IMG/VR virus record: IMGVR_UViG_3300011904_000029
Coordinates: 6,312-70,311 of that record
DNA from: a virus
Taxonomy: Duplodnaviria; Heunggongvirae; Uroviricota; Caudoviricetes
Strand: one strand, 5' to 3'
DNA length: 64,000 bases
Made by a program: the position numbers and the translations under genes. This document shows positions 428-45,400 of this stretch, one piece after another. Under the pieces are notes generated by a model, which worked only from the letters and a program-made list of their open reading frames with translations, did not search any database and had not been told where the DNA came from. Position 1 is the stretch's first letter. Every line of letters begins with the position of its first letter.

Positions 428-933
428 TTATTAATCCTCCTTTCGTATGTAACGAATGAATAATCATAAGGGTGGTTTGCGTCTTTCTTGTGTTTTTCGT
501 GACTAGTAATCTTAAAATCATCTAAACTATATTTAGGAAAATATACGTCAGTATCGGAAAAACGATGTGAAACAATAGTTAGATAGATTTTATCTGTATG
601 TGGCAGAAATCTCTTATAGACCTGTTCCCCACCACACACGAATAATTCTGTATCTTTGTCGGCGTGATTGTAATAGTGTTGTAGGATTAATTCTGCTGAG
701 TTATATATGTAAAGATCTGGATGAAAATCAATGTCTCCGCTTTTTGATAAGATTAAATTTGTCCTGTTTGGTAAAGGTTTTCCGATTTCCTGGTATGTAC
801 GCCTTCCCATTACTATTACATTCTGTTCAGTTAAACTCTTAAACCTCTTCATGTCATTTGGTAAGCGAATTAATAATTTACCATTGTGCCCGATTGCAGC
901 GTTAAGATCACAGCAAGCTATGATATTAATCAA
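424..933 (-). CDS. folA: dihydrofolate reductase
   Basis: 169 aa; N-terminal IIACCDLNAAIGHNGKLLIRLPNDMKRFK and VIVMGRRTYQEIGKPLPNRTNLILSK match DHFR substrate/NADPH-binding motifs. Confidence 0.85.
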   Translation of the reverse strand: MINIIACCDLNAAIGHNGKLLIRLPNDMKRFKSLTEQNVIVMGRRTYQEIGKPLPNRTNLILSKSGDIDFHPDLYIYNSAELILQHYYNHADKDTELFVCGGEQVYKRFLPHTDKIYLTIVSHRFSDTDVYFPKYSLDDFKITSHEKHKKDANHPYDYSFVTYERRINK

Positions 934-2576
934 ATAATCTCCTCCTTATATTCTCCATTATAGTATTTCTCCATTGAAAATCTGTCGTCCTTTATCTGCA
1001 CTCTATATGAATTTAATTTGCTTTTTATGTATTCATATTTCTCTTTATCGGTTGCTATATGGTAAGGAACAACAATTAGTTTAATCCCCAATTCATTGCA
1101 TAGTTTTTTCTTTAATCTATCTCTTCTTTTACTTTCTTCAAATTCTGAATAGTGTTTGTGAAAGTACTCTATATATCTATAATGCTGTTCTCCGTTATAT
1201 TCTAGTGCAACTCTTAATTCTTCGTTGTACATATCTAGTTCAAGGTAATTTTTAATACCATTATACTTATTATTTAATAGCGTTCTGTTTTTGTAAAACA
1301 CTTTATTTGTAAGTTTTTCTATAATGAATTTGCATTTTGTTTCATTTTTAAATCTGCCAGTACAAATTTGACACCAAGTACCTGAAAACACGCTATCTAG
1401 ATTTAACTCGAATATATGATCATTCGCACACACCCATTGTAGTAACTGCTTAGAATCAGTGTAATACTCATAAGGTGTTAAAAGCTTCCCGTGATTTTTT
1501 TCTAGAAAAGAAAGTATTCTTTCATAAGGAATTCTCCTTTCGTCTAAGGTACATTCTTTACAGCTTCTCATTCCCTTAAAATTACCTGCGGAGCATTCCC
1601 AATTATGATTATTAGGGCATAAAAACCTATACTTTTTAAATTGACCTTTGTATTCACTCGGAGTAGACAGTAGTTTATAACCCCTATCTACGGCAACTTT
1701 TTTTAACCTATAATACTCCAATATTCCCCTCTTATTATCATTACACTCTCTACACCATCTTTCATCTTTGCGAACCAAGTCATTAGCACTACGATCAAAT
1801 ATATGACCTCTGCCACATATCAACTTAACTCTGGTTGTACTATCTAAAAGTGTATGATTTTTTGTCAACACTTGACCACCTTTATATCTAGCCATCCGTT
1901 TAATATTCACCCATGATAACTTCTGTATTATTTTAGGACTAATCTTTGTCTCAACCAGTCTTCTTTTTTCATCTTCTTTACATTGACTACACCACGTTGC
2001 ACCAAATTTTATATTGTAAAATGAATCCTCCCATACGTGCCCATTTTCACATTTCCATAAAAGAATATCTTTTTGATTTCCTTTATAACTTTCTGATAGG
2101 CACTCACCACCTTTATTTCTTGCAAACTCTTTAACTTCTTCAATTGTATGTCTCAATTTTTGAAGATAGCATTCGTAACACCAATATCCAGACTTTAAGT
2201 TATTTAGGTTTATTTCATATTTGTGTCTCTCTCCACAAACTATCTTCAATTTCGTGTGTGCATTTTCGTAATCCTCTTTAGGAGACAATACTTCTCCACC
2301 TTTTGAACTCACTATTTCACAGAATTCGTTGTAATATTTTGTTATCAGTTTTTCTTTGTTGTTTTCTTTCCTACATTCTGGGCATCCTTTAATTTGCTTA
2401 AAAGATCCCCACGATGTTTTAAGCTCTCCATGTTTTAAACAACTGTATTTTACTACCCATTTATTACTGCCATTAAATTTCTCCCAAGAATGATTAACAT
2501 ATTTAAGACCAACACCGTTACACACATCAATGATTTTGTCTTTTTTAAGACGGGGAGCACCCACTCTCATAAGCAA
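930..2576 (-). CDS. free-standing homing-endonuclease-like protein: tandem zinc-ribbon repeats plus C-terminal PD-(D/E)XK-like nuclease module (paralog family 1 of 3)
   Basis: 548 aa; about six repeats of the pattern C-x2-C ... W-x-C-x-N/E-G-H; C-terminal LEYNGEQHY...RD..K...C.ELGIKLIVVPY block shared with ORFs 13736..14569 and 43898..45400; sits between DHFR and thymidylate synthase genes. Confidence 0.55.
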   Translation of the reverse strand: MLMRVGAPRLKKDKIIDVCNGVGLKYVNHSWEKFNGSNKWVVKYSCLKHGELKTSWGSFKQIKGCPECRKENNKEKLITKYYNEFCEIVSSKGGEVLSPKEDYENAHTKLKIVCGERHKYEINLNNLKSGYWCYECYLQKLRHTIEEVKEFARNKGGECLSESYKGNQKDILLWKCENGHVWEDSFYNIKFGATWCSQCKEDEKRRLVETKISPKIIQKLSWVNIKRMARYKGGQVLTKNHTLLDSTTRVKLICGRGHIFDRSANDLVRKDERWCRECNDNKRGILEYYRLKKVAVDRGYKLLSTPSEYKGQFKKYRFLCPNNHNWECSAGNFKGMRSCKECTLDERRIPYERILSFLEKNHGKLLTPYEYYTDSKQLLQWVCANDHIFELNLDSVFSGTWCQICTGRFKNETKCKFIIEKLTNKVFYKNRTLLNNKYNGIKNYLELDMYNEELRVALEYNGEQHYRYIEYFHKHYSEFEESKRRDRLKKKLCNELGIKLIVVPYHIATDKEKYEYIKSKLNSYRVQIKDDRFSMEKYYNGEYKEEII

Positions 2577-2591
2577 ATAACTCCCCCGATT

Positions 2592-3377
2592 CTATATGCT
2601 CACACGCATTTTAATATGCGGATGATATTTGTAATCTAGTAATTTGACATCTTGTTCAGTAAAGTTATAAAAGTTATTAATCTCGGTATTAATAAATAAT
2701 TCAGGAGCCTTATAGGGCTCACGATTAAATATTTCTTGAATTGGTTTAAATTGCTGCTCATACAAATGAGCGTTGGTAAGAACAAATATCATTTTACCTG
2801 GTTTTAATTTTGTTACTTGCGCCAACATATGATTTAATACTGCCATCTGAGCAACATTGAAAGGCAAACCAAGCGCAACATCTGAGCTACGAATTGTTAC
2901 GTGCGTATTGAGATGATCATTGTTCACATCCCATATTGAATTAAACATACATGGAGTTAATTGCATCTTATCTAAATCTTCACATTGCCACAGGTTTACC
3001 ATCATTCTTCTTGATTGATTATTATATTTGAGATCGCTGATAAGTTTATCCATTTGACTATGCTTTTCAACTTGTCTTCCATATGCCTCGCCAATAGTAT
3101 TAAATTCGTCTGTCCACTCGTCCCAAATATGAATATTTCTTTCTTGCAGCCATGTTACATCATTTGATTGAATCTGATATATCCATCTCATCTCATTTAC
3201 TAATGACTTGAAAGGTGTGTATTTTAAAGTTAACATTGGGAACTCTTCTTGCAGATCGACAGTGATCACCTTTCCAAAAACTTTTTTTGTATTGTCTGCC
3301 GTTCTATTTTCTCCATAATATCCGTTGTCTAAGATATCTTTGACTAAAACTCTATACTGTAAATCAAAATTACTCAT
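2592..3377 (-). CDS. thyA: thymidylate synthase
   Basis: 261 aa; FPMLTLKYTPFKSLVNEMRWIY, IHIWDEW, LTPCMFNSIW (catalytic Cys region) typical of ThyA family; adjacent to DHFR. Confidence 0.85.
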   Translation of the reverse strand: MSNFDLQYRVLVKDILDNGYYGENRTADNTKKVFGKVITVDLQEEFPMLTLKYTPFKSLVNEMRWIYQIQSNDVTWLQERNIHIWDEWTDEFNTIGEAYGRQVEKHSQMDKLISDLKYNNQSRRMMVNLWQCEDLDKMQLTPCMFNSIWDVNNDHLNTHVTIRSSDVALGLPFNVAQMAVLNHMLAQVTKLKPGKMIFVLTNAHLYEQQFKPIQEIFNREPYKAPELFINTEINNFYNFTEQDVKLLDYKYHPHIKMRVSI

Positions 3378-3402
3378 ATATCCATCCTCCTGTATTTATA
3401 AT

Positions 3403-3430
3403 AAAAGGTAAGAGGAATCAACCTCTTACC
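3403..3430 (-). terminator. intrinsic terminator (9-bp GC-containing stem GGTAAGAGG / CCTCTTACC, 6-nt loop, followed by U-tract on minus strand)
   Basis: perfect inverted repeat 3407-3415/3422-3430, plus-strand AAAA at 3403-3406 gives UUUUAUU on minus strand; lies between upstream small gene and thyA. Confidence 0.55.
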
Positions 3431-3433
3431 TAG

Positions 3434-3462
3434 ATAATACTAATTTATTTCATTAATGTCAA
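3434..3462 (-). promoter_or_regulatory. sigma-A-type promoter TTGACA-17-TATTAT (member of conserved promoter family)
   Basis: minus-strand reading TTGACAttaatgAAATAAATtagTATTAT; -35 at 3457-3462, -10 at 3434-3439. Confidence 0.55.
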
Positions 3463-3670
3463 TGATTATTTATAATTTATTTAATAAATTCGTTATTTTA
3501 TTTTTGGTTTTTTGATTGATGCTTTAATCTTACTTCCTAGCCAGACAAAAGTAATCTCAGTCTTTGGATTAGATCCAATATGTTCAACTTGACCAAACTT
3601 TCTAGGAATCAATGACCATAAAATAAGAGCTACTTTACCCAATTGCCACTCACCTCACTTTTATTCCGAA

Positions 3671-3895
3671 CTACGCATGAAATTCGCTATTAAAACCCAT
3701 CGACTTATAAACCCTCTTTAGTTGTTCATAAGTCATCACATCAATCGTATTTTGTAGTAACTCACGCAATTCTCTTTCTTTCAGTACTTCCAATTTTTCA
3801 AAGGATTGACTGCCGCAGCCACGGCATTTTTCACCAACATACTGCTCTCTTCCGCATCCGAGACAGCAATAATTTTTAGGCTTACTTTTATACAA
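3671..3895 (-). CDS. small zinc-ribbon protein
   Basis: 74 aa with CxxC...CxxC (CLGCG...CRGCG). Confidence 0.4.
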   Translation of the reverse strand: MYKSKPKNYCCLGCGREQYVGEKCRGCGSQSFEKLEVLKERELRELLQNTIDVMTYEQLKRVYKSMGFNSEFHA

Positions 3896-3951
3896 ATTTA
3901 CACACCCCCTTTACTTCACAGTCGTATCTTATACACAATAAATTATCTGCT

Positions 3952-4668: not shown

Positions 4669-4738
4669 TAGTATATTTCCCCTTTGTATGTAAATTTATT
4701 TTAGATAAGAGAGGAGAATTAACTCCGCTCTATGTGTA

Positions 4739-7889: not shown

Positions 7890-8946
7890 CAAATTTGTTA
7901 CTACCTTATTAAAAGGCGGATAGGTCATTTCTGCCTATCTCTCTATGTCGCCATAGAGTTCAGACTATATCTTCTTGTGCGTGTGGTTATAAAAATTTAT
8001 TTTATATAATATGTATTTCTTTATTATGTAGTTCCATATGACATTCGAAGCATAATGTCTGTAAGTTTTCCTCTTTATTTGCTTCATTAATATCGTCAAA
8101 CTCCTCTATAGGAATTATGTGATGAACATTTAGTGCGTACTTTTCATAACTTTGAGTGTTGCAAATTTGACAAGTATAATTATCTTTTTTGACTTTTCTT
8201 TCTCGTATTCTTGACCACTTACTTCCATATCTATTTGGATTTTCTCTAGAAAACTGTCTATTTACACATCTATTTGAACAATATATTCTTTTATTTGACG
8301 GAACTGTAAAAGAAGGTCTTTCAAATTCCTTTTTGCAACAATAACATATTAATTTAATTGTATTTTGTTCGTTAGCAATATTGATACATTCTTGTGAGCA
8401 ATAGCTTATTTCTTTCCTATCTGCCCAAAACTCTTTATCACATACCTTACAGTTTAAATTATGTTTGTTTTTTCTACATAAATCAGAGCAATAATTACCG
8501 TCTTGTTGTATTCTCTGCTTAGCAATTTCAAACTCTTCTTTGCAATATTTACAATTAACTTTGACTTTTTTTGAGTTAATTGCTCCTAATTTAGCACTAC
8601 ACTTATGTGAGCATGTTCGTTTGGATCGCTCTCTTTTATTTTTTATATTTACTGTAAAAATGCTTTCACATATCTCACATTCCTTATCAACATATTCTTT
8701 TACTCTAGGTATTTATTATTCCTCCCTTGATCGCAACCACACGCACAAGTTTGGTTCGAGTTATAAAATTACTCTTATAACTACTTAGTCGTTGAACCTT
8801 CTACCTGGGAAACCAGGAAGCTCGGCTGCGAATTGCCCGCACTCTTGGGTTTTTAGGGTTCGCCGTGTCATTACTGCACGGTATCCTACCTTGAGATACT
8901 CGGGGTTCCCCGCAATTGACCAATTTTATACTCGGCTCATAAGTTA
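7890..8946 (-). mobile_element. group I intron interrupting nrdE, with embedded HNH endonuclease ORF
   Basis: exon 1 reads ...YVNQLG then stops; exon 2 resumes SRVAGIALYL (conserved YVNQxGxRxGAxAxYL block reconstituted); 5-prime exon end ACUCGGU pairs with internal guide GCCGAGU (U-G at splice site); intron ends with G; GC-rich structured core at 8760-8945. Confidence 0.7.
8002..8712 (-). CDS. intron-encoded HNH homing endonuclease with N-terminal zinc-ribbon repeats
   Basis: 236-codon open frame with C-terminal CQICN...HHIIP...NLQTLCFECHMELH HNH motif; preceded by GGGAGG RBS and TAATAA; no in-frame ATG/GTG/TTG near 5-prime end (first codon ATA). Confidence 0.65.
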   Translation of the reverse strand: MPRVKEYVDKECEICESIFTVNIKNKRERSKRTCSHKCSAKLGAINSKKVKVNCKYCKEEFEIAKQRIQQDGNYCSDLCRKNKHNLNCKVCDKEFWADRKEISYCSQECINIANEQNTIKLICYCCKKEFERPSFTVPSNKRIYCSNRCVNRQFSRENPNRYGSKWSRIRERKVKKDNYTCQICNTQSYEKYALNVHHIIPIEEFDDINEANKEENLQTLCFECHMELHNKEIHII

Positions 8947-12659: not shown

Positions 12660-13226
12660 TTATTGACTCTTACTTTTTATCAGTTCTTTAATAACAATTT
12701 GATGAGCCTCAATTTGGGCTTGTTTTAAGTCATCATTAACAATCACATAATCAGCGTACTTCTCATTTTCCAATTCGCTAGTGTTGTTTAGATGCTCCAG
12801 CCTTTTTTTAATTTCAAATACACTGTCTCCACGCTTCATCATTCTCATCGCTAATTTATTGGGACTCGGGGGTTTTATGTATATAATCACAGCTCTGTCT
12901 CCAAGCCCTTCTTTTAATGATTTAGCTCCATTAATATCTTTTGTGCAATGATAAGGAGTGCCATTTAACATGCTTTCTATTGAGAATTGAGGAGTTCCAT
13001 AATAGTTTCCTGCATATTCAGTTGTTTCATAAAAAAAGCAACTTCTTTGAAGTTTAATAAATTTATCAAAACTGACTTGATTAATGTGGTATCCATCAAT
13101 TTCTCCTTCTCTAAGGGATCGAGTTGTATAATTTGTCATGAATCTTATAGGAAGAGAATGTTGAATTGATGATTTTCCTGAGCCACTAGCTCCCATGAAA
13201 ATAAATAATTTCAAATGTATCACCAC
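12660..13226 (-). CDS. gmk: guanylate-kinase-like nucleoside monophosphate kinase
   Basis: 188 aa; P-loop GASGSGKSS followed by TTRSLREGEIDGYHINQVSFDKF and NYYGT, the guanylate kinase fold signature. Confidence 0.6.
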   Translation of the reverse strand: MVIHLKLFIFMGASGSGKSSIQHSLPIRFMTNYTTRSLREGEIDGYHINQVSFDKFIKLQRSCFFYETTEYAGNYYGTPQFSIESMLNGTPYHCTKDINGAKSLKEGLGDRAVIIYIKPPSPNKLAMRMMKRGDSVFEIKKRLEHLNNTSELENEKYADYVIVNDDLKQAQIEAHQIVIKELIKSKSQ

Positions 13227-13726
13227 CTCTGTTGTAGCTCTGTAATTATTTCATCCATTAAATTTTCAGGAATATGATATGTATCCTCCTTTTTGTAAGG
13301 AGACAGAAACAATTTAACTAAATCTTGTTCATTGCTTTTGTTTTCACTTTTTCTTTCCATGTCGTTTTCAATCAATTGGAGTGATTCTGGTCTTTCCACT
13401 CTACACGACCCATCCTTAAATTTAACTTCAATTTGATTGTAGAGATAATCAATCTTGACAATCTCACACTCTTCACTTGTTGATTTGTATAATAATTTAT
13501 TTCCTATATTAAACATTAACAAAGGATTGTTTCTACTTATCGTACTGAGTTCAACATCTTTTACACTAATAATCCTTCCATTACAAATTAAACGAACTTT
13601 ATAGTCGTACATTGGAGTTTTATCTGTGTCAGTAATTTTCACTAACTCGCCTACATGTCTTGGAACTCCTATATCTGAATTCTCATTTAAAACAGCAAGA
13701 TCTCCTTTTTGAAAAGACATGTGCAA
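13220..13726 (-). CDS. hypothetical protein
   Basis: 168-aa ORF. Confidence 0.4.
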   Translation of the reverse strand: MHMSFQKGDLAVLNENSDIGVPRHVGELVKITDTDKTPMYDYKVRLICNGRIISVKDVELSTISRNNPLLMFNIGNKLLYKSTSEECEIVKIDYLYNQIEVKFKDGSCRVERPESLQLIENDMERKSENKSNEQDLVKLFLSPYKKEDTYHIPENLMDEIITELQQRW

Positions 13727-13735
13727 ACTCCTTTC

Positions 13736-14569
13736 TTAATTTAAGCTTATATTTAATTTACTTATGTACTCATTAATTAAATCTCCGACTCTACTAAATT
13801 CTGTGTATGGGATACGTAAAATTGAAATTCCATTTTCTTTGCAGAATGCATCTTTTCTATCATCTCTTTCTAAAACATAATCAAGAGTATTTTTAAAAAG
13901 CTCTCTTTCCTCGAAATGATGTATTCCATCATATTCAATAATAAACAAAACATTTCCATTTATATCATAAATTACAAAATCAAAGAACATTGATTCCCCA
14001 CTATTATTTTTATAATGAACCTCACGATCATATGTCACTCCTAAAGACTCCAAATGGTCAATCACTTCTTTTTCACCTAGAGAAAAATGACAATATTTAC
14101 ATCTTATGCCACTGCGTAAGTTACTAAGGAGCATTTCTGTCCTATGACCATTATTGCACACAACAGTCATTTTTTTGTGTGAGTTGACATATTCCCCTAT
14201 TCTCTTATATCCAATTGACTCAAGAAAACTGTCAACTTCCTTAATTGAAAATCTTTGTTGTACACTACTCTTTTGCAACCAACATTTTCTACATCTAACT
14301 CCTTTTAAAAAATGACTCCAATATATTTCAATTTCATGACCAGCGCTACACTTTACTTTTATTTTGGACTTAGAGTCCTTATAGCTATCTGATATAAGAA
14401 TATAATTTTCTTTTTCTAACTCCTCATTTATAAGATTAATACTCCAATTTGTTTTTCCTTTTCCATTCTTATCTTCTTTTTTGCAACTGGAGCACCTTCT
14501 TCCATTTTTATATTTTTGAAATGTCACTTTCCAATCATGCCCATAAGGGCATCTAACTATAATAGGCAC
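13736..14569 (-). CDS. zinc-ribbon / PD-(D/E)XK-like homing endonuclease paralog (family 2 of 3); annotated from GTG but frame stays open upstream to 14850
   Basis: 277 aa from GTG; C-terminal IEYDGIHHFEE...RDDRKDAFCKENGISILRIPY block shared with 930..2576 and 43898..45400; upstream in-frame extension encodes further CxxC...GH repeats. Confidence 0.5.
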   Translation of the reverse strand: MPIIVRCPYGHDWKVTFQKYKNGRRCSSCKKEDKNGKGKTNWSINLINEELEKENYILISDSYKDSKSKIKVKCSAGHEIEIYWSHFLKGVRCRKCWLQKSSVQQRFSIKEVDSFLESIGYKRIGEYVNSHKKMTVVCNNGHRTEMLLSNLRSGIRCKYCHFSLGEKEVIDHLESLGVTYDREVHYKNNSGESMFFDFVIYDINGNVLFIIEYDGIHHFEERELFKNTLDYVLERDDRKDAFCKENGISILRIPYTEFSRVGDLINEYISKLNISLN

Positions 14570-14853
14570 ATTACTATTGACAAAATCACTGACCAGTTCA
14601 TAGCCATCTTTCTCAAGACTTTTTACAACTTCGTGCTTTGTGATTTTAACCCTATTACTACAACGAGGACACCTTCTTCCTGATTTAAATTTTGAAAAGG
14701 AAGCTTCATATTGATGACCTTTTTCGCATCTTAATACGAGTTTTTCTGTGCTATTTTTATACTCATCGGAAACTAGTCTATACCCGATATTTTCTATATA
14801 CTCTTTAATATCTTTATATGCTAATCTTACCCCATGATTATGACCTTCTCCCT

Positions 14854-15570
14854 TTAATTTAAAATTTCAATTTTTAATTTCTTCCTTCCCCATTGCCAAA
14901 CTCTATCCCTATCAGCAATATATAAGTCTAGTATTTTACCTTTTATTGCTCCTCCACGATCTTGGCAAATTCTTGTCCCTACACTCTCAATGTTAATTTT
15001 TGTACCAAATGGAATATGTGGTGGGCAAGCAATAGTTACGCCTTCTTGAACATAAGCTCCACTTGCAGTTTTTCCATAACCTTTATCACCAGGACTCTTG
15101 CCAGTTGACTCATATCCAGCATGGTAAGCAGTAACTTCATAATAATCAACTTTACCAGATGAGTGACTACTTTTATTTGAGCCACTCATATTAGGGCCTG
15201 TATTGCTTTTACTCGTGTTAACACTACTAATGCTTAATCTATTAACCTTATCTTTTAGCCTATGTATTTCATCATCTTTAACTTTAATCTTTTTCCTTAA
15301 ATCTTCATTATTTTTATTTAATTCATTATTATCTTCCTTTAACCCTTTAATTTCTCCTCGCTGCTTTTCCAATTGACTGTTCTTATTGTAAACCTGATCC
15401 ATCAAAACCCTTTTATTTTTCTCTAGCTCATCAATCTCTTTCTGCTTATCTCCAATTGTCTTATTCATATCGTCCACTTTGTTTTCATATTTTACGACTG
15501 TATTCACATTTGCTCCAATCGCAACAGTTAAAGCAAGAGATATGAATATTGCCTTTTGATTAAAATTCAT
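14854..15570 (-). CDS. secreted coiled-coil protein with C-terminal 3D (MltA-like) cell-wall domain
   Basis: 238 aa; N-terminal signal/TM segment, long Lys/Glu-rich coiled coil, C-terminal YYEVTAYHAGYESTG...GKILDLYIADRD 3D-domain signature. Confidence 0.5.
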   Translation of the reverse strand: MNFNQKAIFISLALTVAIGANVNTVVKYENKVDDMNKTIGDKQKEIDELEKNKRVLMDQVYNKNSQLEKQRGEIKGLKEDNNELNKNNEDLRKKIKVKDDEIHRLKDKVNRLSISSVNTSKSNTGPNMSGSNKSSHSSGKVDYYEVTAYHAGYESTGKSPGDKGYGKTASGAYVQEGVTIACPPHIPFGTKINIESVGTRICQDRGGAIKGKILDLYIADRDRVWQWGRKKLKIEILN

Positions 15571-15671: not shown

Positions 15672-16916
15672 TTATTTAACATTTAATAGTTGCTGAAATA
15701 ATGCTTCACAAACATTAATAACTATACTATTACCAGTCATGCGATAGAGTCTTGTCTTTGACCTGTCTCTGCCTTTGTAAAACTTATCATTTACTGCTTT
15801 TCTTGCCACTTCGTAATCCCTATCAGTGAAACCCATTAGCCTAAACGCCTCCTTGTTGGTCATTTCCCTAATGAACAAATATTCTCCCTCTGCAATCAAG
15901 TCATCCTCACTCTTGACCAACTTGTATCCATCATCTATTTTTACGGCAAGCTTTAGTCCTTTTATTTGAGTTTTTGACACATTTTCTAATAACTCACTCA
16001 GTTCAATAGGATTTTTTTTATTAAAAATAGCTACCATAAAATCCTTAGTCACAGTCGTCACCGTATTACTTACGTCATCTTTTCTAATCTCCAGTTGTTG
16101 AGGCTGTCCCATATAGCTTCTTGTCCTTAAACTACAGCCCTTAACAATTCTTCTGTCCAAGACAACGTTATATGGAACCCCTTTAGACATATTGGCTGTT
16201 AAACATCTACTAGCATCATGGTCAGAGTCACTATGGTGCTCAAAATCCCAATGGGTTCTACCACCTTTTGTTTTTCTATTCATATACTCGATTGCTTTTT
16301 CAGTATGTATATGATTTTTTAATATATCTAAATCTGTTTCCAATTTATCTGAGAGTGATTTTTGATTAGGCATTGGCTCAGGGAAATCGAATCCTTTATC
16401 AATATCTTTACGAATACTAATCATAAAGATGCGCTCTCTATTTTGAGGAATTCCAAAATCACGAGCATTTAATATTTGCCAGTAGTTGTTATATCCTGCT
16501 TTTTCTAATTCCTCTTGCATTTCTTTAAACTCATTTTCAAACTTTTTACTTGTTAGTCCTTTTACATTTTCCATTAATGCATATTTTGGACTCTTAGCTC
16601 GGATAATTCTGAGAGCATCAAAAAACAATATCCCTCTATGATCATCAAACCCCAATTGTTTACCAGCTGCCGACCATGATTGACATGGTGGAGAGTAGCA
16701 AATAACATCGCAATCCGGTACATCTTCAATGTTTAATGTAGTTATATCCGTAGCAGGAAAATTTGTATTATGTATTGAATTATAGGCGGTAATCGCAAAT
16801 TCATCATTTTCAACTGCTAAAACTGTTTCATGTTCTATATTAAGATTTTCAAGTGATTTTTTCCAGGCTCCTATTCCTGCAAATAATTCAACTACTTTTA
16901 ATTTACCAATAAGAAA
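15672..16916 (-). CDS. DNA (cytosine-5)-methyltransferase (full-length frame; 5-prime end lacks canonical start / apparent frameshift)
   Basis: open frame encodes motif I VELFAGIGAW, motif IV CYSPPCQSWS, motif VI ENV (ALMENVKGL), motif VIII QNRERIFMI; ORF-track call 15672..16655 starts after motif IV at an internal TTG. Confidence 0.75.
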   Translation of the reverse strand, partial: FLIGKLKVVELFAGIGAWKKSLENLNIEHETVLAVENDEFAITAYNSIHNTNFPATDITTLNIEDVPDCDVICYSPPCQSWSAAGKQLGFDDHRGILFFDALRIIRAKSPKYALMENVKGLTSKKFENEFKEMQEELEKAGYNNYWQILNARDFGIPQNRERIFMISIRKDIDKGFDFPEPMPNQKSLSDKLETDLDILKNHIHTEKAIEYMNRKTKGGRTHWDFEHHSDSDHDASRCLTANMSKGVPYNVVLDRRIVKGCSLRTRSYMGQPQQLEIRKDDVSNTVTTVTKDFMVAIFNKKNPIELSELLENVSKTQIKGLKLAVKIDDGYKLVKSEDDLIAEGEYLFIREMTNKEAFRLMGFTDRDYEVARKAVNDKFYKGRDRSKTRLYRMTGNSIVINVCEALFQQLLNVK

Positions 16917-17927: not shown

Positions 17928-18161
17928 TTACTCATCCATCAGTGCAAAGAATGTTGCAATGTTATGATTTCCACCAGCTCGTTGCGCCACTTTAATTTTA
18001 TTTTCTTCTGAAAGAGTGTTCCAAATAGATGACAGTTCACTAATAATCTCTTCAAATGTTTTACCTTCTGTATCGACTTCAACGAAGCTAAGATCTGCGT
18101 TTACTATCGTAAAGTTTAAAGCCTCAATTACTAAAACTATTTCATTTGAGTTCAGCTTCAC
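17928..18161 (-). CDS. hypothetical protein
   Basis: 77-aa ORF. Confidence 0.35.
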   Translation of the reverse strand: MKLNSNEIVLVIEALNFTIVNADLSFVEVDTEGKTFEEIISELSSIWNTLSEENKIKVAQRAGGNHNIATFFALMDE

Positions 18162-18197
18162 TTTTATGTCTCCCTTATTCTCAATAAACCTAAAATT

Positions 18198-18443
18198 TTA
18201 TTTCTTTGTATCCCATTTAACTTTATTATTAATTTCTTTGATTATAAGTTCTGCAATTCTCTTCCCTTTAGTTTCATTTTCTAGAGTGTCAAAGCGTTGC
18301 TCTAATTTTTCTAATCGGTAATTTATATTTGTTAAAAAGCAAACAAAATCATCAAGTGAATTGATACTGGGTTCTTTTATTTCACCCTTAAACTTCATCA
18401 CAACATTTCCATTGTCATCTATAACCTTAATATTCTGATCCAT
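18198..18443 (-). CDS. hypothetical protein
   Basis: 81-aa ORF. Confidence 0.35.
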   Translation of the reverse strand: MDQNIKVIDDNGNVVMKFKGEIKEPSINSLDDFVCFLTNINYRLEKLEQRFDTLENETKGKRIAELIIKEINNKVKWDTKK

Positions 18444-18486
18444 AATTACATCTCCTTTTATTTATTGGATTAAAATAAATTCTAAT

Positions 18487-18762
18487 TTATAACAACGATC
18501 CATCCATGATTAGAATACTAGTGTCTGAGCTATTAAAATCTTCAAGTACCAAATGAGGATCGACCAGCTTTCCGTCCTCGCTTGGTGCTTGACTAAATCT
18601 TACTAATGCATAATCTTCTGGAACTAGCTTACATTCTTCAAGAAGCACTTCAAGTTCACTTTCATCACCAGCGACAACTTCAATGTACTTTTTAACTGCA
18701 TCAACATCGTCCTTAGCTTTAATTAATGCGTAATAAGGATCAACAATTTCATAGATATTCAT
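18487..18762 (-). CDS. hypothetical acidic protein
   Basis: 91-aa ORF with AGGAGG RBS. Confidence 0.4.
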   Translation of the reverse strand: MNIYEIVDPYYALIKAKDDVDAVKKYIEVVAGDESELEVLLEECKLVPEDYALVRFSQAPSEDGKLVDPHLVLEDFNSSDTSILIMDGSLL

Positions 18763-18859
18763 TTTTTTAGCCTCCTCTTAAAATTAATCTCTCGTTTACT
18801 CCGTTTTCCTTCGCTTTTCATCCTCATTTTTACAATAAAATAGTGGTTTTAATTGATTC

Positions 18860-21154: not shown

Positions 21155-21165
21155 TCACCCCTTTA

Positions 21166-33430: not shown

Positions 33431-33812
33431 TTATTTTATCCTTTAGGCTTTTGGGCAATTTGCTATTAATTTTTCTTATTCGCTTATCTCTGTTCATCAT
33501 CCAATCTTGTATCTCCATAGTTTCAAAATAGTCATTGGCATTTGGTATGAAGCCCAAATCTTCTAATATATGTTGCTCTCCAACATATCTAGTAAAAACA
33601 GTCCTACCATCAGAATTTATAAAAGACTCTCCAAAAATTTTTGCGCATTCAAAAATACCTTCTGAATGATGTCTCATGGCTCGATGTCTCATATCTGGAA
33701 TCCAAGCTTTTGTTACATCAAACCAATTATGGATTTCAATATAGTCTTTTGGCTGGCCTCCAAATCTTCTTGCAGAACTTTTAGCATGAATTTCTGGGTG
33801 TGACATTATCAC
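33423..33812 (-). CDS. hypothetical protein
   Basis: 129-aa ORF. Confidence 0.4.
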   Translation of the reverse strand: MIMSHPEIHAKSSARRFGGQPKDYIEIHNWFDVTKAWIPDMRHRAMRHHSEGIFECAKIFGESFINSDGRTVFTRYVGEQHILEDLGFIPNANDYFETMEIQDWMMNRDKRIRKINSKLPKSLKDKINV

Positions 33813-34425
33813 TCATCTCCTTTTTTACTATTATATGCTTCCAAGTCATACCGTTTTTAATTTGATAAAGCATAGATGGGGTAATATCGTGCTTTTTTCT
33901 TATCTCTTTGCTGCTAGCTCCGTTGAATATCATATTTTTTATGTCTATAACTTGTTCAGTAGTTAGTCTTGCCGTTGGATTATTCTCGCCTCTCGCTTTT
34001 TTACTTAGCATTTCCCTGTTTTCTTTTGTGTGAGTTTTCCCGTAAAAACTGTTATTTTCCCCAGCTTGAGATTTTCTTATTTTCTCTTTTGATTCTTTTG
34101 AGTGCTTATAATCAAGTAGCGAATATGAATTTGGTGCTAAATTGTATTTGTTCTTTATTTTGTCAAGAAAGTATTGCTCTCTTTGACTAAGCTCATCTTT
34201 ATCTTTAACTTCTTCGAGTATTTCGAATGTAAATGATGATTCGCCAAATTGATCAAAGTCTTGTTGAAGCGATCCGTTATGATGAACCCCTTTCCTCAAT
34301 GCCCACCTATGAGTTAACCATCTTTCATATGTGTCTACCGTGCTTCCTATGTAAACCATGTTATTTTCTTTGCATATAATTTGATATATTCCTAGTTTTC
34401 TCTCTGCTTTTTTAGTGATTGGCAT
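33781..34425 (-). CDS. GIY-YIG homing endonuclease (I-TevI-like, with NUMOD-type linker repeats and C-terminal HTH)
   Basis: 214 aa; GIYQIICKENNMVYIGST...YERW GIY-YIG core; repeated KxxxGExNxxYGKTH modules. Confidence 0.75.
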   Translation of the reverse strand: MPITKKAERKLGIYQIICKENNMVYIGSTVDTYERWLTHRWALRKGVHHNGSLQQDFDQFGESSFTFEILEEVKDKDELSQREQYFLDKIKNKYNLAPNSYSLLDYKHSKESKEKIRKSQAGENNSFYGKTHTKENREMLSKKARGENNPTARLTTEQVIDIKNMIFNGASSKEIRKKHDITPSMLYQIKNGMTWKHIIVKKEMSDNVTPRNSC

Positions 34426-36313: not shown

Positions 36314-36963
36314 TTATAGATTTTCTCTTATATAAATCTTATAGTCTTCGTTAAGCCACCTATCTATTTTATTCAATCTATCAGCACTATAAAAATTTAA
36401 TTCTTTTGTATACCAGTCAGTATAGTCATATGCCCACTTTTTACTATTGCAATACCTGCATGAAGGTACACAATTACTTAAATCATTTAATCCGTCATTT
36501 ATAGCATGTTCCATATGTAGATGATGTCCTTGCTCTTGTTTCGCAGTCTCCTCCTCGACTCCACAATAAGCACACTTGTAGTCAAAATACGCCTTGCACC
36601 TTTCCCATTCTAAAGGTGAAATGTCATGCTGCTTATGCATGTGTTTATAATTATACTCCTTGAGTTTTTCTTTATTATCTCTTCTCCATCTTCTTTGATA
36701 TCCCCTCTCTCTCTTTGTTGTTTCCCATATTCTCTATTCTTTTTCTGCCAATCTGGACTAGACATATATCTATTAATCTTATTTTGTACAAGCTCTGCAT
36801 ATCTTTCAGGATTCTCCTCTTGCCATCTCATACTTCTCTCCACAGCACAGTCTTTACAATAGGGCTGATAGTAAATATACTCATCTCCAGACGATTTCTT
36901 TTTATTTTGAGAATAAAATGAGTCTAGGCTTTTTTCTAAGTTGCAATCTGAGCATACTTTCAC
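36314..36963 (-). CDS. HNH endonuclease, apparently split by a frameshift (two overlapping ORFs 36610..36963 and 36314..36640)
   Basis: downstream part has HNH core GHHLHMEH...NCVPSCRYCNSKK; upstream part has zinc finger CSDC...CKDC and W..N.E..Y repeat modules that continue in the other frame; frames switch inside (CT)5CCCC tract at 36702-36714. Confidence 0.5.
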
Positions 36964-40986: not shown

Positions 40987-41022
40987 TAAATTGTACGTCT
41001 AATAATAAAAAGGAGCTTTCCG

Positions 41023-41235: not shown

Positions 41236-41466
41236 GTACGGTGGCTGAATGCCACTGGTTGCTAATCATCGAAAACGATGATTTAACACTACCTTTTTCC
41301 TATAAATTATACAACGCTTATATAGTATTTACTATATAAAATTCCAAATTATACTAGTTATTGTTCGTTGTACAATTTATACAAAAACCACTTCATATAT
41401 TTATTTAATTTTTATGTATAAATCTTAACCTATTCTATACAGTAGGTCAAGATTTAGAAGCATATA

Positions 41467-42462
41467 TTACCCATATAATTTTTCGACATTTTTTTCATTT
41501 ACAAACTGTTTTATATATGCCGTATTGTAATAAGTGTAGTCCTTCACAGTTATGGGGCTTAAATTGTACTTAATTGCTATCTTTTCAAATTCTTCATATT
41601 CGATTTCATTTGAGAACCCTTTTTCTTTTTTATCTTGAAGCAGCTTATATGCCATATAAATCATCCCTGATCTTGTCAATGACTTTGGTGTTATATCTTG
41701 AAAGTCGAAAAGTTCCGCAATCATTTTTATTCTATTCAATATTGTTATCTGACTAACTCTTTCTCCTTCCTTAACTCTGCCTCTTCTAACGTTTTTAATT
41801 ACATAATCACTCTCAACGATCTGAGAAGTTGAAAATCTCCCTTCTTCAACTGTTCCATTCCTGTTTAAATATTCATCATTACTATAATGAGCCTGTCTTA
41901 TTAACTCAATAACATCGTCTTCAAAATAGACAAATCTTTCTCCTTTTACATCATCATATAATCTCACTTTCCCAGTTTCTTCTTCTACATCAGCCCATCT
42001 TAAGTTTCTTAACTCACTGCTCTCTGTGCCATAAACTCCCTCAAATAATAAACGTAAAACCACTCTATCTTGAATATTTACTAAGTTGTTATATATATAA
42101 TCGAGTTCCTGTTTTGAAATAAACTGCTTAATGTCTTTATCAATAAACTGTCTATACCATTCTCTGTCTAAATTCTGCATAGGATGAATGTTGCTTGTTC
42201 GTAAATTATTCTTAATAGCCCACGCTATATATTGTGAAATAAAATTTCCTCTTGTTACTGCTACATTTAACGATTTGGGGTTTGAGTTAGCAATTACAGA
42301 ACCAATTTGATCTAGTGAAAAATCATACAAATCTTTCCCTAAAGGGACTTCATTCCCATAGGCATAATAAAAAATATACTCTACAACGTTTCTTGTCGTT
42401 TCACTATCATAGGCATCATTTAAAAATCTTTTTTTGATATCTTCATTATACATTTTATGCAT
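41467..42462 (-). CDS. tyrosine-recombinase-fold protein with degenerate active site (YopR-like repressor candidate)
   Basis: 331 aa; box I-like VLRLLFEGVYGTESSELRNLRWADV retained but box II reads SLTRSG (His replaced by Ser). Confidence 0.45.
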   Translation of the reverse strand: MHKMYNEDIKKRFLNDAYDSETTRNVVEYIFYYAYGNEVPLGKDLYDFSLDQIGSVIANSNPKSLNVAVTRGNFISQYIAWAIKNNLRTSNIHPMQNLDREWYRQFIDKDIKQFISKQELDYIYNNLVNIQDRVVLRLLFEGVYGTESSELRNLRWADVEEETGKVRLYDDVKGERFVYFEDDVIELIRQAHYSNDEYLNRNGTVEEGRFSTSQIVESDYVIKNVRRGRVKEGERVSQITILNRIKMIAELFDFQDITPKSLTRSGMIYMAYKLLQDKKEKGFSNEIEYEEFEKIAIKYNLSPITVKDYTYYNTAYIKQFVNEKNVEKLYG

Positions 42463-42463
42463 A

Positions 42464-43828
42464 CTAAGATTTCACCATACCCTTTACGTCTATTTCTTTA
42501 AAGTAATTTGCAATATTTTTTCTTAATTGATTTGTGTCTCTTTCAATATTACCTTTCTCATTTAACACACCAATATCTTTCCATAATGGATTGTCTTTTG
42601 AGAAATCAATGCTCTTTACAACCTTTCTGATTTCTTTTGCTTTTATATCAGATTCATACATACGTCTTGCTATGACAATATATCCCACAAACACGTTATT
42701 GTCATTAATCAATGAATTCTTTCTTGTTTCTTCAACTTTAAAAATAAACTCGTCTTGATAAGACCCAATTAGCATATTGAAAAATTCAACAAGAAAATCT
42801 CCTACATCCGCTGCGTCTGCACGGGTATTCATGATAAATTCTTGATCTATTGTATCTGCCAACACGTTATACGAAACTAATTCGTTTGCAATTGTTCTTA
42901 CTCTATTCGTTTGAGAAATCCTACCCTCTAGATCGCTTTCCGTCTTAAGCTGCTGAACAACACTGTCCGAGTACCTTTTCGATTCCCACTCTTGAACTCT
43001 TACGGTAGAGATAGGGGTAGCTTTTGCTACCTGAGCCTGTTCAGCTCTAAATTTCTTTTTTGTAAAATTACTTATGACAACAATGAAGTCATGCTGAATA
43101 TCTTTGTTGTTCATCAAAGCGTTTCTAATGGCAGTAATTCTGTGAAACCCATCACCAATCGCAAGTTCAGTTCCTTTATTTATCTGTAATGTCTGATGCG
43201 TGGGATCATACTCTAATTCATTTCCGGTTTCACTACTTCTTACTAACGCATTCCAAACTAATGGAGGAGTTGTTTTTGCTAATGTTCCATTGATGAGATG
43301 TTGCTCAATTTCTCTTACATTTGTCATCATCAACTTTGGCTTTTTTCTTACTGTCCCATCTTTGCCCTTCACTAATACAGCCTCTCTTTGTAATTCGTAA
43401 TCGTAAATTAATAATTGATTTTCAACTAACTCATTAATAGTATGCATATCGATCCTTACAGAAAATACGCCATCTCCCTCTACTCTAGCGTTTTTCAAAA
43501 CTATAGGAAAGTCAACTTCTTCACGATAGACAGATGCATCATATGTTTTTGCTATATCTTTTTCAACATCAGTAAAATAATCACTTGGATTTATATTATA
43601 AGTAACGCCGCATTTTGCGTAAATCTGCTCAGTAATTAAATATAACTCCCTAATATCTAAATTAGATAGCGATTCTTTCGCATTACTGATCCATGTTTGA
43701 ACTTCTCCAGCTAATATATTGTGTTTGCTTACTAAGTGTAATTTAATATCATTAATAATTTTCTTATCTCTTTTAATAGCTTGGATAGCTTGAGTAAGAT
43801 TTTCTTCTAATAACTCTCTATCATTCAT
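42464..43828 (-). CDS. DGQHR-domain (DndB/ParB-like nuclease superfamily) protein
   Basis: 454 aa; motif ELAIGDGFHRITAIRNAL corresponds to the DGQHR signature of DndB-like proteins. Confidence 0.5.
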   Translation of the reverse strand: MNDRELLEENLTQAIQAIKRDKKIINDIKLHLVSKHNILAGEVQTWISNAKESLSNLDIRELYLITEQIYAKCGVTYNINPSDYFTDVEKDIAKTYDASVYREEVDFPIVLKNARVEGDGVFSVRIDMHTINELVENQLLIYDYELQREAVLVKGKDGTVRKKPKLMMTNVREIEQHLINGTLAKTTPPLVWNALVRSSETGNELEYDPTHQTLQINKGTELAIGDGFHRITAIRNALMNNKDIQHDFIVVISNFTKKKFRAEQAQVAKATPISTVRVQEWESKRYSDSVVQQLKTESDLEGRISQTNRVRTIANELVSYNVLADTIDQEFIMNTRADAADVGDFLVEFFNMLIGSYQDEFIFKVEETRKNSLINDNNVFVGYIVIARRMYESDIKAKEIRKVVKSIDFSKDNPLWKDIGVLNEKGNIERDTNQLRKNIANYFKEIDVKGMVKS

Positions 43829-43897
43829 CTATTTCACCTCATTTATATATTACATTAAGCAATGACACCTGTAAAACAGTTATTAATATAAATTTAT

Positions 43898-45400
43898 TTA
43901 CCCAATTTGATCATAGTCTTCTTTATACATCCATCTGTATCCACCAGCTGATTTTCGGCGACCTTGGCAAACTAGTGATATTCCATTAGCACTTTTCATA
44001 TTTAAATGCTTTCTTGCTTTTCCCATACTTTCCCATGATTTGATAAATCTTCCATCATGTGTCAGCTGAACAATTTCTTTTGATTTTATTAGCGCCCCTG
44101 TATTTTTCTTTGAATCATAATCACACCAACCGATTTTGGCTCCCTGTTTTAAGAATTTAATTGCTGTATTTCTTCCTATATTAAGTGTTTTAGATATCTT
44201 TAATGAGCACCTTACTCCCATATTCCATAAATCACTTGCATCTTTTACTAATGTTGAACAAGCAAATTCGTGACACTTTAACCACTCAATATTGGAAAAA
44301 TTGATTAGATTTATAATATCGCTATTTAGAATACCTACTTTTATCCAGTCTATATTTGAATATCTACAATCCAATACAATATAATTAGCAATTCCGTTTT
44401 CTTTAGCTAATTCTTTTTTTAATTTGTCGTTCTTTTTAACTTCAATTAGGCTACCTCCTTTAAATCCTTCTTCATAATGCTGTAACCCATGTGTCTCTAT
44501 TATCATATTTAAATCAGGAATATAAAAGTCATACCTCTTATATCCAACAATATCCTCATCTTTAAGTTTTACATTTTTTGACCAACTAAATATTTTCTGT
44601 GTTTCAAATTCCATGTTTAATTGCATGAATATGCCAATAACGAATTTTTCTGGATAACTAAATCCATCAGAACATCTTGAGCAGCTAAATCCTTGATTGA
44701 CAACATTATCTATAAATTTCATTTCTGAGTTACTACATTTTGGACAAGTAAACCTTAGTTTTCTTTGACTCCCTTTAGATACTTCATATCCTATGCGGGG
44801 ATCAGATAAAAGACTCGCTACATCAGGATTAGTCGCCCATAGGCAATTCGTATGATTTACTTTTTTTCCAGTACAATATGGGCAATTATTACCATTAACT
44901 TTATTAGCTATTGTCATGGAATATTCACTTTTGCATAATAAACAATTCCACTTATACTTGATTCCAGAAGACTTAAATATCTTGTCTGGCGTACAATCAT
45001 TTTTATTACTAAACTCAAGCAATATATAGTTTTTATTATTTTCTTTTACCCAATATTCTAAAGTGTGTTCATACGACATAATTTCTCTTTTAGTTATTTC
45101 GGCTTTTATACTACCACATCTTCTACACCTATCAATTCCATCTCCAGCTTGTCGACTTGAGATAATTTTAGAATAACTTTGATTCTTAATCACCTCATTA
45201 CAGTCATCACAAATCTTAGTAACCTTTACATTAGAATTTTTAGGTAGATCGCTGACGCTTATTAGTATTTTTGTATTAGGTGGAACTGTTAGTCTTCCTT
45301 GATTATTTTTACGTCTTGGTATGTGATACCCCAATAATTCATAATATTTATCAGTTTTTAATCCACATCTTACCCATATTTCTTTCTCTAATATAGCCAA
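43898..45400 (-). CDS. zinc-ribbon / PD-(D/E)XK-like homing endonuclease paralog (family 3 of 3) with C-terminal NUMOD1-like DNA-binding tail
   Basis: 500 aa; CxxC...GH repeats; YDFYIPDLNMIIETHGLQHYEE...KENGIANYIVLD nuclease block; C-terminal ...SAGGYRWMYKEDY. Confidence 0.55.
   Translation of the reverse strand: MAILEKEIWVRCGLKTDKYYELLGYHIPRRKNNQGRLTVPPNTKILISVSDLPKNSNVKVTKICDDCNEVIKNQSYSKIISSRQAGDGIDRCRRCGSIKAEITKREIMSYEHTLEYWVKENNKNYILLEFSNKNDCTPDKIFKSSGIKYKWNCLLCKSEYSMTIANKVNGNNCPYCTGKKVNHTNCLWATNPDVASLLSDPRIGYEVSKGSQRKLRFTCPKCSNSEMKFIDNVVNQGFSCSRCSDGFSYPEKFVIGIFMQLNMEFETQKIFSWSKNVKLKDEDIVGYKRYDFYIPDLNMIIETHGLQHYEEGFKGGSLIEVKKNDKLKKELAKENGIANYIVLDCRYSNIDWIKVGILNSDIINLINFSNIEWLKCHEFACSTLVKDASDLWNMGVRCSLKISKTLNIGRNTAIKFLKQGAKIGWCDYDSKKNTGALIKSKEIVQLTHDGRFIKSWESMGKARKHLNMKSANGISLVCQGRRKSAGGYRWMYKEDYDQIG

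Follow-up and report, generated by a model that had tools for sequence, protein, structure and literature searches.

Putative free-standing homing endonucleases with zinc-ribbon arrays and a Vsr-like nuclease domain at three gene junctions of an SPbeta-like prophage

Three genes of an SPbeta-like prophage, here called ORF1, ORF2 and ORF3, are very probably free-standing homing endonuclease genes (HEGs), which combine an array of CapR/DUF4379/DUF723 zinc ribbons with an EDxHD (Vsr-like) nuclease and which were each acquired separately and inserted between neighboring genes. The window, i.e. the whole stretch of 64,000 nucleotides that was analyzed, is part of NCBI MAG contig DAMDKB010000005.1 (GCA_032100165.1, 163,871 bp), for which a 20 kb megablast against GenBank phages returned no close relative. 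Besides the three zinc-ribbon genes, it carries a GIY-YIG gene, an HNH gene within an intron of nrdE, and a split HNH gene, all of which are further selfish nucleases of classical families. This set of six had been proposed in the initial annotation and is borne out by Pfam, PHROG, and alignment. Its description as unusually dense was overstated: six such genes in one prophage are ordinary for large phages, HEG clusters adjoining essential phage genes are on record (PMC10448857), and the zinc-ribbon plus Vsr-like family alone accounts for up to seven matches per single phage among GenBank relatives. A PHROG scan of ten unannotated ORFs in the window found no further endonucleases. The three genes and their surroundings are as follows:

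930..2570, minus strand: ORF1, putative free-standing homing endonuclease gene, 546 aa (Pfam DUF4379/CapR; PHROG 559, E 1e-59)
424..933, minus strand: dfr (dihydrofolate reductase), flank of ORF1
2592..3377, minus strand: thyA (thymidylate synthase), flank of ORF1
13736..14835, minus strand: ORF2, putative homing endonuclease gene of the ORF1/ORF3 family, four zinc ribbons and nuclease domain
13220..15570, minus strand: flanks of ORF2, with a YorP-like gene (13220-13726) and a 3D-domain gene (14854-15570)
43898..45400, minus strand: ORF3, putative homing endonuclease gene, 500 aa
41467..46465, minus strand: SPbeta-type lysogeny module interrupted by ORF3
45425..46465, minus strand: yopP-like integrase gene
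42464..43828, minus strand: yopQ-like DndB gene
41467..42462, minus strand: MrpR/yopR repressor gene, after the yopQ-like gene

All three ORFs are present on the minus strand and have a common build, in which tandem zinc ribbons of ~60 aa are followed by a C-terminal nuclease domain of ~110 aa. Pairwise BLASTP comparisons of ORF1, ORF2, and ORF3 yielded E-values of 7e-10, 5e-6, and 5e-8. The tandem ribbons, already recognized in the initial annotation, are supported by Pfam and PHROG matches and by the unit counts, which are six in ORF1, four in the full reading frame of ORF2, and three in ORF3. The DUF4379 treble-clef zinc finger scores 35.7 bits in ORF1 and 64.9 bits in ORF3 (curated cut-off 24.5), while ORF2 matches CapR (35.9 bits, cut-off 24.2) and DUF2726 (27.0 bits, cut-off 24.7); DUF723 is recorded for many homologues of the three ORFs. 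PHROG 559/681 is matched by all three, and ORF2 and ORF3 also match PHROG 9084, ‘homing endonuclease’. The ribbons of ORF1 (aa ~44-403) are of the C-x3-H...C-x2-C type and precede an EDxHD/Vsr-like nuclease domain at the C-terminus. The ‘C-x-x-GH’ motif that had been ascribed to all three proteins holds for ORF1 and ORF2 but not for ORF3, which has CxxC...CxxC units of the DUF4379 type. Repeats recur every ~60-80 aa in ORF1 and ORF2, and the units of ORF3 lie at irregular intervals (first CxxC at aa 64, 153, and 219). In ORF3, the EDxHD/Vsr-like domain is accompanied by a C-terminal NUMOD1/I-HmuI-like helix-turn-helix region, which displays no similarity to the GIY-YIG protein of the window.

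The shared C-terminal block proved to be real: an alignment of 24 sequences, comprising the three ORFs and 21 homologues, shows E, D, E-x-x-G-x-x-H, and D-x-x-K to be invariant. When aligned by profile to 3r3p, the invariant residues (E, D, E, H, D, and K) fall on E170, D196, N208, H213, and D222, the residues named for I-Bth0305I (PMC3239194). The nuclease-domain profile recovered AbaSI, 3hrl, and 3r3p among solved structures, if weakly (E 0.02-0.4); direct searches of PDB chains with the ORF2 and ORF3 sequences found no nuclease match, and a full-length profile against PDB chains gave zinc-ribbon noise only. Given these weak sequence matches to solved structures, it is fold and motif that support assignment to the family. 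The best matches lie on the Vsr-like branch, and the block did not fall into a non-nuclease fold. The earlier suggestion of a PD-(D/E)XK enzyme was right as to the superfamily, with the branch probably being Vsr-like/EDxHD rather than that of a canonical PD-(D/E)XK homing enzyme (I-Ssp6803I or HE_Tlr8p-like). DUF2726 has been grouped with VSR/DUF559 in a survey of PD-(D/E)XK proteins (PMC3424549), and relatives in GenBank carry the annotation VSR homing endonuclease or group I intron protein. The catalytic domain of the three ORFs is a Vsr-like variant of the restriction-endonuclease fold.

Each gene occupies a junction that is empty elsewhere. ORF1 lies between dfr and thyA, as initially reported, and fills the spacer from the thyA stop codon to the start of dfr; dfr starts with a TTG that overlaps the stop codon of ORF1, and the Shine-Dalgarno sequence of dfr, AAGGAGGAG, is located within the 3’ end of ORF1. 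The thyA-dfr gap measures 8 nt in locus L002, which is empty, while orthologues of ORF1 with 46-48% identity reside at the same junction in L087 and L088. A search of genome contigs with ThyA yielded a distant, uninformative match only. ORF2 had been placed next to the methyltransferase gene, which is off by one gene, given that the 3D-domain gene intervenes and the C5 methylase is encoded at 15672-16916. The gene order is 3D-HEG-YorP in L013, and in L006 the 3D gene and the YorP-like gene are just 4 nt apart. The ORF2 call at 13736-14569 is truncated, as the open frame reaches 14866. Homologues begin at the position of an ATG (14835-14833), which in the sequence at hand is displaced from the reading frame by 1 nt, in a G4 run; the GTG at 14569 is the first canonical start in frame and gives the 277-aa, three-ribbon product of the public gene calls. 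A 384-kb JGI contig encodes the same proteins, with the identical 277-aa ORF2 call; two metagenome scans, one with the exact pattern over the G run and one with the extended ORF2 protein, did not retrieve this contig.

The position of ORF3 within the repressor operon was likewise confirmed, between the yopP-like integrase gene and the yopQ-like DndB gene, with MrpR/yopR coming next after the latter. Without ORF3, yopP and yopQ are adjacent, with gaps of 67 nt in Perkons and 84 nt in phi3T. A prophage of Bacillus pseudomycoides carries a homologue with 47% identity on the other side of yopP, and since its YopP/Q/R proteins share only 33-34% identity with those of the window, the HEG is better conserved than its host module. 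Other homologues of ORF3 are found in non-phage chromosomal contexts, and a search of viral contigs with the yopQ-like protein produced no match. It is conceivable, albeit unlikely, that the ORF3 lineage, which occurs on either side of yopP in different prophages and is better conserved than the lysogeny module, specifically follows yopP-yopQ-yopR/MrpR, in which case it could drive exchange of the whole repressor/immunity module among SPbeta-like prophages and even have been co-opted into lysogeny control.

A related possibility, which we consider improbable, is that the three genes are domesticated derivatives that kept the HEG architecture and have since taken on a function for the phage, either as sequence-specific DNA-binding regulators or as dedicated nucleases, similar to CapR of the Vibrio PLE satellite. 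Here, ORF3 would be the best candidate, owing to its location inside the yopP-yopQ-yopR lysogeny module and to the homologue accompanying the same module in B. pseudomycoides, and CapR-type zinc-finger domains are indeed present in a domesticated endonuclease acting as a repressor (PMC10448857). However, all catalytic residues are intact in the three ORFs, the lysogeny module works without an ORF3 gene in Perkons and phi3T, and ORF3 takes different positions relative to yopP from one prophage to another, as is more readily explained by insertion than by an integrated role in regulation.

In agreement with insertion of selfish elements, the three genes are not conserved in all relatives, and every junction is empty in one or more related phages. 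Empty junctions were found in L002, L006, Perkons, and phi3T, and occupied orthologous ones in L087, L088, and L013, although the relatives compared for empty sites are distant, with flanking proteins at 22-79% identity, and gain is indistinguishable from loss. In the 68 kb of Perkons that were compared, no homologue of ORF1, ORF2, or ORF3 was found, while ORF1 and ORF2 have orthologues at the same junctions in other phages. The three genes had been described as paralogous. They are related, but identity among them is 25-29% compared with 46-53% to genes in other phages and genomes, on which grounds local duplication was rejected as their origin in favor of independent acquisitions.

The architecture, fold, conserved catalytic residues, exact intergenic placement, and presence or absence at the same junctions in relatives were observed, and from these we infer catalytic activity, target sites, and present-day mobility. 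In the proposed mechanism, the tandem zinc ribbons would recognize an extended stretch of DNA, located where the two flanking genes meet or close by, in the genome of a related phage lacking the HEG, and in ORF3 the NUMOD1-type helix-turn-helix would add to target reading. The nuclease domain would cut this target with the Glu/Asp/His/Asp set common to I-Bth0305I and Vsr, and repair of the break by recombination with the HEG-carrying genome would provide the recipient with a copy of the HEG and probably also of markers flanking it. Alternatively, the proteins might be competition or exclusion nucleases, which would attack the DNA of rival SPbeta-like phages or prophages and need not copy themselves into the site of the cut. 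Boundaries of phage genetic exchange can be marked by nuclease genes (PMC10448857), and all three genes adjoin conserved genes that rivals carry as well. Yet, self-copying predicts what is seen here, namely orthologues that occupy the identical junction in different phages and empty sites elsewhere. Exclusion is also compatible with homing and thus more a side effect than a true alternative; on its own we regard it as quite improbable. Least credible of all is a Vsr-type repair role, envisaged for ORF2 especially, which would nick T:G mismatches arising when 5-methylcytosine made by the C5 methylase encoded nearby is deaminated: the three ORFs have no match to PF03852 at E<=0.1 and none in NCBIfam, they carry long zinc-ribbon arrays, as HEG DNA-binding modules typically do and the ~155-aa Vsr does not, no methylase gene lies anywhere near ORF1 or ORF3, and ORF2 is not adjacent to one and is absent from L006 and Perkons.

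The other three nucleases of the window are associated with the following features:

7890..8946, minus strand: group I intron, 1057 nt, in nrdE, the large-subunit gene of class Ib ribonucleotide reductase
8002..8712, minus strand: HNH homing endonuclease ORF within the nrdE intron, 236 codons (Pfam HNH PF01844, 38.6 bits)
33781..34425, minus strand: free-standing GIY-YIG homing endonuclease gene (GIY-YIG and NUMOD3; Pfam, TIGR01453)
36314..36963, minus strand: split HNH endonuclease gene in two overlapping frames (36610-36963 and 36314-36640)

The initial annotation gave no coordinates for the intron HNH, which is thereby located. Exon 1 of nrdE runs to 8947 and exon 2 begins at 7889, and the exact exon junction is fixed by the uninterrupted nrdE of L002 (...NQLG|SRVAG...). 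Sequences CUCGGU and GCCGAG can pair as P1, with a U-G at the 5’ splice site, and the last intron base is G. The match to Rfam RF00028 (31 bits, E 1e-5) is under the gathering score of 50, which leaves the ribozyme assignment below threshold, and at the gathering threshold Rfam has no match anywhere in the window. The HNH ORF has no ATG, GTG, or TTG before codon 226; the candidate start is an ATA at 8712, 8 nt after GGGAGG, and the ORF is missing from the public gene calls. Several genes of the window lack such a start, namely those for the DNA polymerase, the intron HNH, and the C5 methylase. It is conceivable, though unlikely, that this is real biology and not sequencing error, and that starts at AUA or AUU throttle the expression of these genes.

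The frameshifted HNH gene was confirmed as well, with Pfam HNH on the C-terminal part and PHROG 1035 matched by both parts in order (positions 63-138 and 144-243). The frame change lies 3’ of the frame-0 TAG near 36738, probably in the GAGAGAGAGGGG run near 36700-36712, and the gene is either a pseudogene or the product of a sequencing error. The GIY-YIG gene is well supported by PF01541 (50.5 bits), PF07460 (43.3 bits), and TIGR01453 (115.6 bits, cut-off 56). The start of a DUF6915 gene lies within its 3’ end, and none of 66 loci carrying a DUF6915 homologue has a GIY-YIG gene at this position, these loci being too distant for an empty site to be defined.

Three of the six copies look impaired, i.e. 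ORF2 with its 1-nt frameshift, the split HNH, and the intron HNH without a canonical start. Decaying copies are expected late in the homing cycle, and ORF2, the split HNH, and possibly the intron HNH probably represent such copies. Given that ORF2, as sequenced, cannot be translated from its ancestral ATG and that two of the other three HEGs look impaired, current mobility of the set is doubtful, and several stages of the homing cycle appear side by side in one SPbeta-like prophage. The locus reveals no new kind of system. Its main value lies in annotation, since NCBIfam and public gene calls leave the three zinc-ribbon proteins unnamed, and relatives are often mislabeled as ‘HNH endonuclease’ in RefSeq. 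The three genes would be free-standing, site-specific additions to a zinc-ribbon/EDxHD family of HEGs only outlined in 2025, and each comes with matching empty and occupied junctions that are directly usable as cleavage substrates.

Among known systems, the GIY-YIG/NUMOD3 gene is I-TevI-like and passes TIGR01453 but is free-standing, and the intron HNH resembles the I-HmuI type in residing in a group I intron of a ribonucleotide reductase gene, a classical host of phage introns. Unlike I-HmuI-type enzymes, it has no canonical start codon, and the second HNH gene is split by a frameshift. Similar to the T5orf172 HEGs of ICP1 and other phages, a class with repeated CapR-like zinc-finger DNA-binding domains (PMC10448857), ORF1, ORF2, and ORF3 have a repeated CapR/DUF723 array and the habit of settling beside essential or conserved phage genes, as T5orf172 members do in ‘HEG islands’ (PMC10448857); the nuclease domain is GIY-YIG-like in T5orf172 and Vsr-like here. 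E. coli Vsr (PDB 1CW0) shares the core fold and the catalytic Asp/His/Asp arrangement, but is a small, single-domain, mismatch-nicking repair enzyme whose gene is paired, usually overlapping, with that of its cognate C5 methylase; the three ORFs have no such pairing, long DNA-binding arrays, and a sporadic distribution. I-Bth0305I (PDB 3R3P; PMC3239194), the EDxHD prototype, has the composite E-D-x-H-D residues also seen in ORF1, ORF2, and ORF3, although similarity by sequence is not significant alone (E 0.4). Its gene lies in a group I intron of recA, and its DNA binding relies on NUMOD2/HTH motifs, whereas the N-terminal regions of the three ORFs are zinc-ribbon arrays, which places them in the zinc-ribbon outgroup rather than among close relatives of I-Bth0305I. 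This outgroup, reported from phages, combines several ~60-aa CapR/DUF4379/DUF723-related domains with a ~100-aa C-terminal EDxHD/Vsr-like nuclease domain (PMC12350094), the same architecture as in the three ORFs. The published examples lie inside group II or group I introns and have three to five repeats, while the genes described here are free-standing and intergenic in an SPbeta-like prophage, with six repeats in ORF1 and an additional C-terminal NUMOD1/I-HmuI-like region in ORF3.

The window adds three free-standing genes (ORF1-ORF3) to a known, recently characterised homing-endonuclease family, in which zinc ribbons are joined to an EDxHD/Vsr-like nuclease. Along with a GIY-YIG gene and two HNH genes, they bring the number of nuclease genes to six:

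930-2570 (-), ORF1
7890-8946 (-), group I intron in nrdE, a 1057-nt insert
8712-8002 (-), HNH ORF within this intron, 236 codons, Pfam 38.6 bits
13736-14569 (-) as first listed, ORF2
33781-34425, GIY-YIG gene with GIY-YIG and NUMOD3 domains, match to TIGR01453 above cut-off
36314-36963, split HNH gene
43898-45400 (-), ORF3

The relationship among the three zinc-ribbon proteins reported in the initial annotation is recovered by pairwise BLASTP (E 7e-10, 5e-6 and 5e-8) and by profile matches. Counting Pfam matches only above curated cut-offs, ORF1 and ORF3 carry DUF4379, a "treble clef zinc finger", and ORF2 carries CapR and DUF2726; all three belong to PHROG families 559 and 681, ORF2 and ORF3 also to 9084, and the best PHROG match of ORF3 is 4538. 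ORF1 contains six C-x3-H...C-x2-C units and ORF2 four, counted over its full reading frame. The three units of ORF3 are of the CxxC...CxxC type, and the "GH" motif once ascribed to all three proteins is therefore limited to ORF1 and ORF2. The proposed common C-terminal block is borne out by a 24-domain alignment including all three ORFs, in which a Glu, an Asp, and the motifs E-x-x-G-x-x-H and D-x-x-K are invariant. In the 277-aa ORF2 product, the conserved Asp and His are D197 and H218. The nuclease-domain profile aligns weakly with the I-Bth0305I structure (3r3p; E 0.4), and the invariant residues fall on E170, D196, N208, H213, and D222, positions that make up the EDxHD motif and coincide with the active site of Vsr on superposition (PMC3239194). 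Given this placement, and given that a survey of PD-(D/E)XK proteins groups DUF2726 with VSR/DUF559 (PMC3424549), the block is a nuclease fold, as anticipated, though of the Vsr-like branch.

Thousands of relatives lacking annotation have been reported for this family (PMC12350094). By tblastn, ORF2 matches 501 GenBank phage records, with hosts including Staphylococcus, Bacillus, Enterococcus, Escherichia, and others; the matched genes are variously annotated as "HNH endonuclease", "VSR homing endonuclease" or "group I intron protein", the first of which is a mislabel. For ORF3, 857 homologues fall at E<=1e-8, chiefly in Bacillaceae and named "zinc-ribbon domain-containing protein", many with NUMOD1 or I-HmuI NUMOD-like domains. 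None of the NCBIfam models covers the family.

The genes reside in an SPbeta-like temperate phage, as judged by gene content. The window (G+C ~31%, coding almost wholly on the minus strand) encodes YorP, YosH, YopX, YorH, and YolD domains, an MrpR (YopR) master-repressor fold adjoining yopQ-like (DndB) and yopP-like (integrase) genes, as well as DnaB, a family A DNA polymerase, a class Ib ribonucleotide reductase, thyA, and dfr. Exact protein matches place it within the MAG contig DAMDKB010000005.1 (GCA_032100165.1, 163,871 bp), and it is an integrated prophage, since its immediate left flank carries a large serine recombinase gene and comG genes of the host. There, comGC, a pilin-like N_methyl gene, and comGF come after the recombinase (17955-20786 of locus L010), an arrangement that looks like a prophage end beside or within the host comG operon. 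Towards the other end, 61007-63964 (-) and beyond (L008 5582-8611) encode a 1009-aa fusion of N6 adenine methylase and ResIII/DEAD helicase domains, with a possible role in restriction, anti-restriction or defence. No close relative was found among GenBank phages searched at the nucleotide level; by protein comparison, the closest described phage is Psychrobacillus phage Perkons.

Comparison with related genomes revealed the presence/absence pattern expected from the initial annotation. ORF1 (1.65 kb) occupies exactly the spacer between thyA and dfr, and the Shine-Dalgarno sequence of dfr lies within the 3' end of ORF1. In the IMG/VR contig L002, only 8 nt separate the thyA stop from the dfr start (ThyA 70%, DHFR 45% identical to those of the window), while L087 and L088 carry ORF1 orthologues, 46-48% identical, at this junction (ThyA 77% and 79% identical, respectively). 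For ORF2, contig L013 presents the order 3D domain (51% identical), endonuclease gene (50% identical), and YorP; in L006, whose polymerase is 75% identical, no endonuclease gene is present at this junction, and a YorP-like gene of the same length and architecture as that of the window (E 3e-6) starts 4 nt after the 3D gene. The yopP-like and yopQ-like genes, separated by ORF3 in the window, are adjacent in Perkons (67 nt) and phi3T (84 nt). Across the 68 kb of Perkons compared, all six nuclease genes lack a homologue. A Bacillus pseudomycoides prophage (L086 5001-10173) has an ORF3 homologue, 47% identical, that lies upstream of yopP instead of separating it from yopQ, and the YopP/Q/R of this prophage are only 33-34% identical to those of the window; by sequence identity, the ORF3-type gene is thus more conserved than its host module, as horizontal spread would predict. 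The three ORFs had been called paralogous, yet they are 25-29% identical among themselves and 46-53% identical to genes elsewhere; they are separate acquisitions rather than local paralogues.

Two side observations concern these loci. At the same lysogeny module, this ORF3-type lineage occurs on one side of yopP in one prophage and on the other side in the other. Beside ORF2, a 168-aa ORF (13220-13726, -) matches two PHROG families in tandem, YorP-like (aa 5-64) and phrog_18253 (aa 71-110), which are separate small genes in L013.

The remaining nuclease genes differ in setting. The GIY-YIG gene stands alone, and its 3' end overlaps the beginning of a DUF6915 gene; a GIY-YIG gene is missing from the corresponding position at all 66 loci compared that carry a DUF6915 homologue, all of them distant. 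The HNH gene described as frameshifted is indeed split, with two overlapping frames matching consecutive parts of PHROG 1035, and the shift comes after the frame-0 stop near 36738, probably within a GAGAGAGAGGGG run. The intron HNH was likewise confirmed within an insert splitting nrdE between ...NQLG (8947) and SRVAG... (7889), a gene uninterrupted in L002. The insert scores 31 bits (E 1e-5) against the group I intron model, below the Rfam threshold; it can pair into a P1 helix in which U-G marks the 5' splice site, and its last nucleotide is G. Its ends (7918-7974, 8700-8916) are 86-97% identical to unannotated DNA of Lysinibacillus phages vB_LfM_LysYB1 and YB2, a similarity that suggests a related intron there and hints at host range.

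Three of the six show apparent damage. The ORF2 frame is open to 14866 and its homologues start farther upstream than 14569, which extends the gene to about 14835. These homologues begin "MG(T/R)KLTY"; the window reads C-ATG-GGG-TAA, where one further G would give "MGVRLAY", and the ancestral start therefore lies 1 nt out of frame in a G run. Public gene calls, including the JGI assembly, list the identical truncated 277-aa product. Besides ORF2 and the split HNH, the intron HNH ORF looks intact yet has no ATG/GTG/TTG before codon 226, which explains why public gene calls and the ORF listing missed it; an ATA codon lies 8 nt after GGGAGG. A homopolymer sequencing error possibly underlies the apparent damage.

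Candidate non-canonical starts were also noted elsewhere. The polymerase frame (21100-21160, -) continues for 57 codons ahead of its first canonical start, a stretch that includes the DSETTGL exonuclease motif, and after AAAGGGG the window reads GTT-ATA-TTA where L006 has TTG-ATA-TTA; translation may begin at ATA. The C5 DNA methylase (15672-16916, -), truncated to 300 aa in the public call, is open for 87 codons upstream without ATG/GTG/TTG, and this extension holds motif I (FAGIGA) and PPCQ; an ATT after GGAG is a candidate start, or else a T run there carries an error of 1 nt.

Overall, the initial observation and its core interpretation stand, with corrections to fold, acquisition history, ORF2 extent, and the three damaged copies. 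Further endonuclease-type genes (I-HmuI NUMOD-like, NUMOD4, HNH) occur near replication genes of related SPbeta-like phages, where this load thus appears general:

160-828 and 6918-7448 of contigs L012/L013/L014
14588-15271 of L081 (Perkons), ORF112

Phage T4 has ~15 homing endonuclease genes in 169 kb. Six in 44.5 kb, or ~1 per 7.4 kb, is high, as had been claimed, but not exceptional, given that single GenBank phages contain up to 7 matches to the zinc-ribbon/EDxHD family and that "HEG islands", clusters of such genes beside essential phage genes, have been described (PMC10448857). The same work reports repeated CapR/DUF723 zinc-finger DNA-binding arrays in T5orf172-class phage homing endonucleases (PMC10448857), which the CapR/DUF4379 units of the window ORFs resemble.
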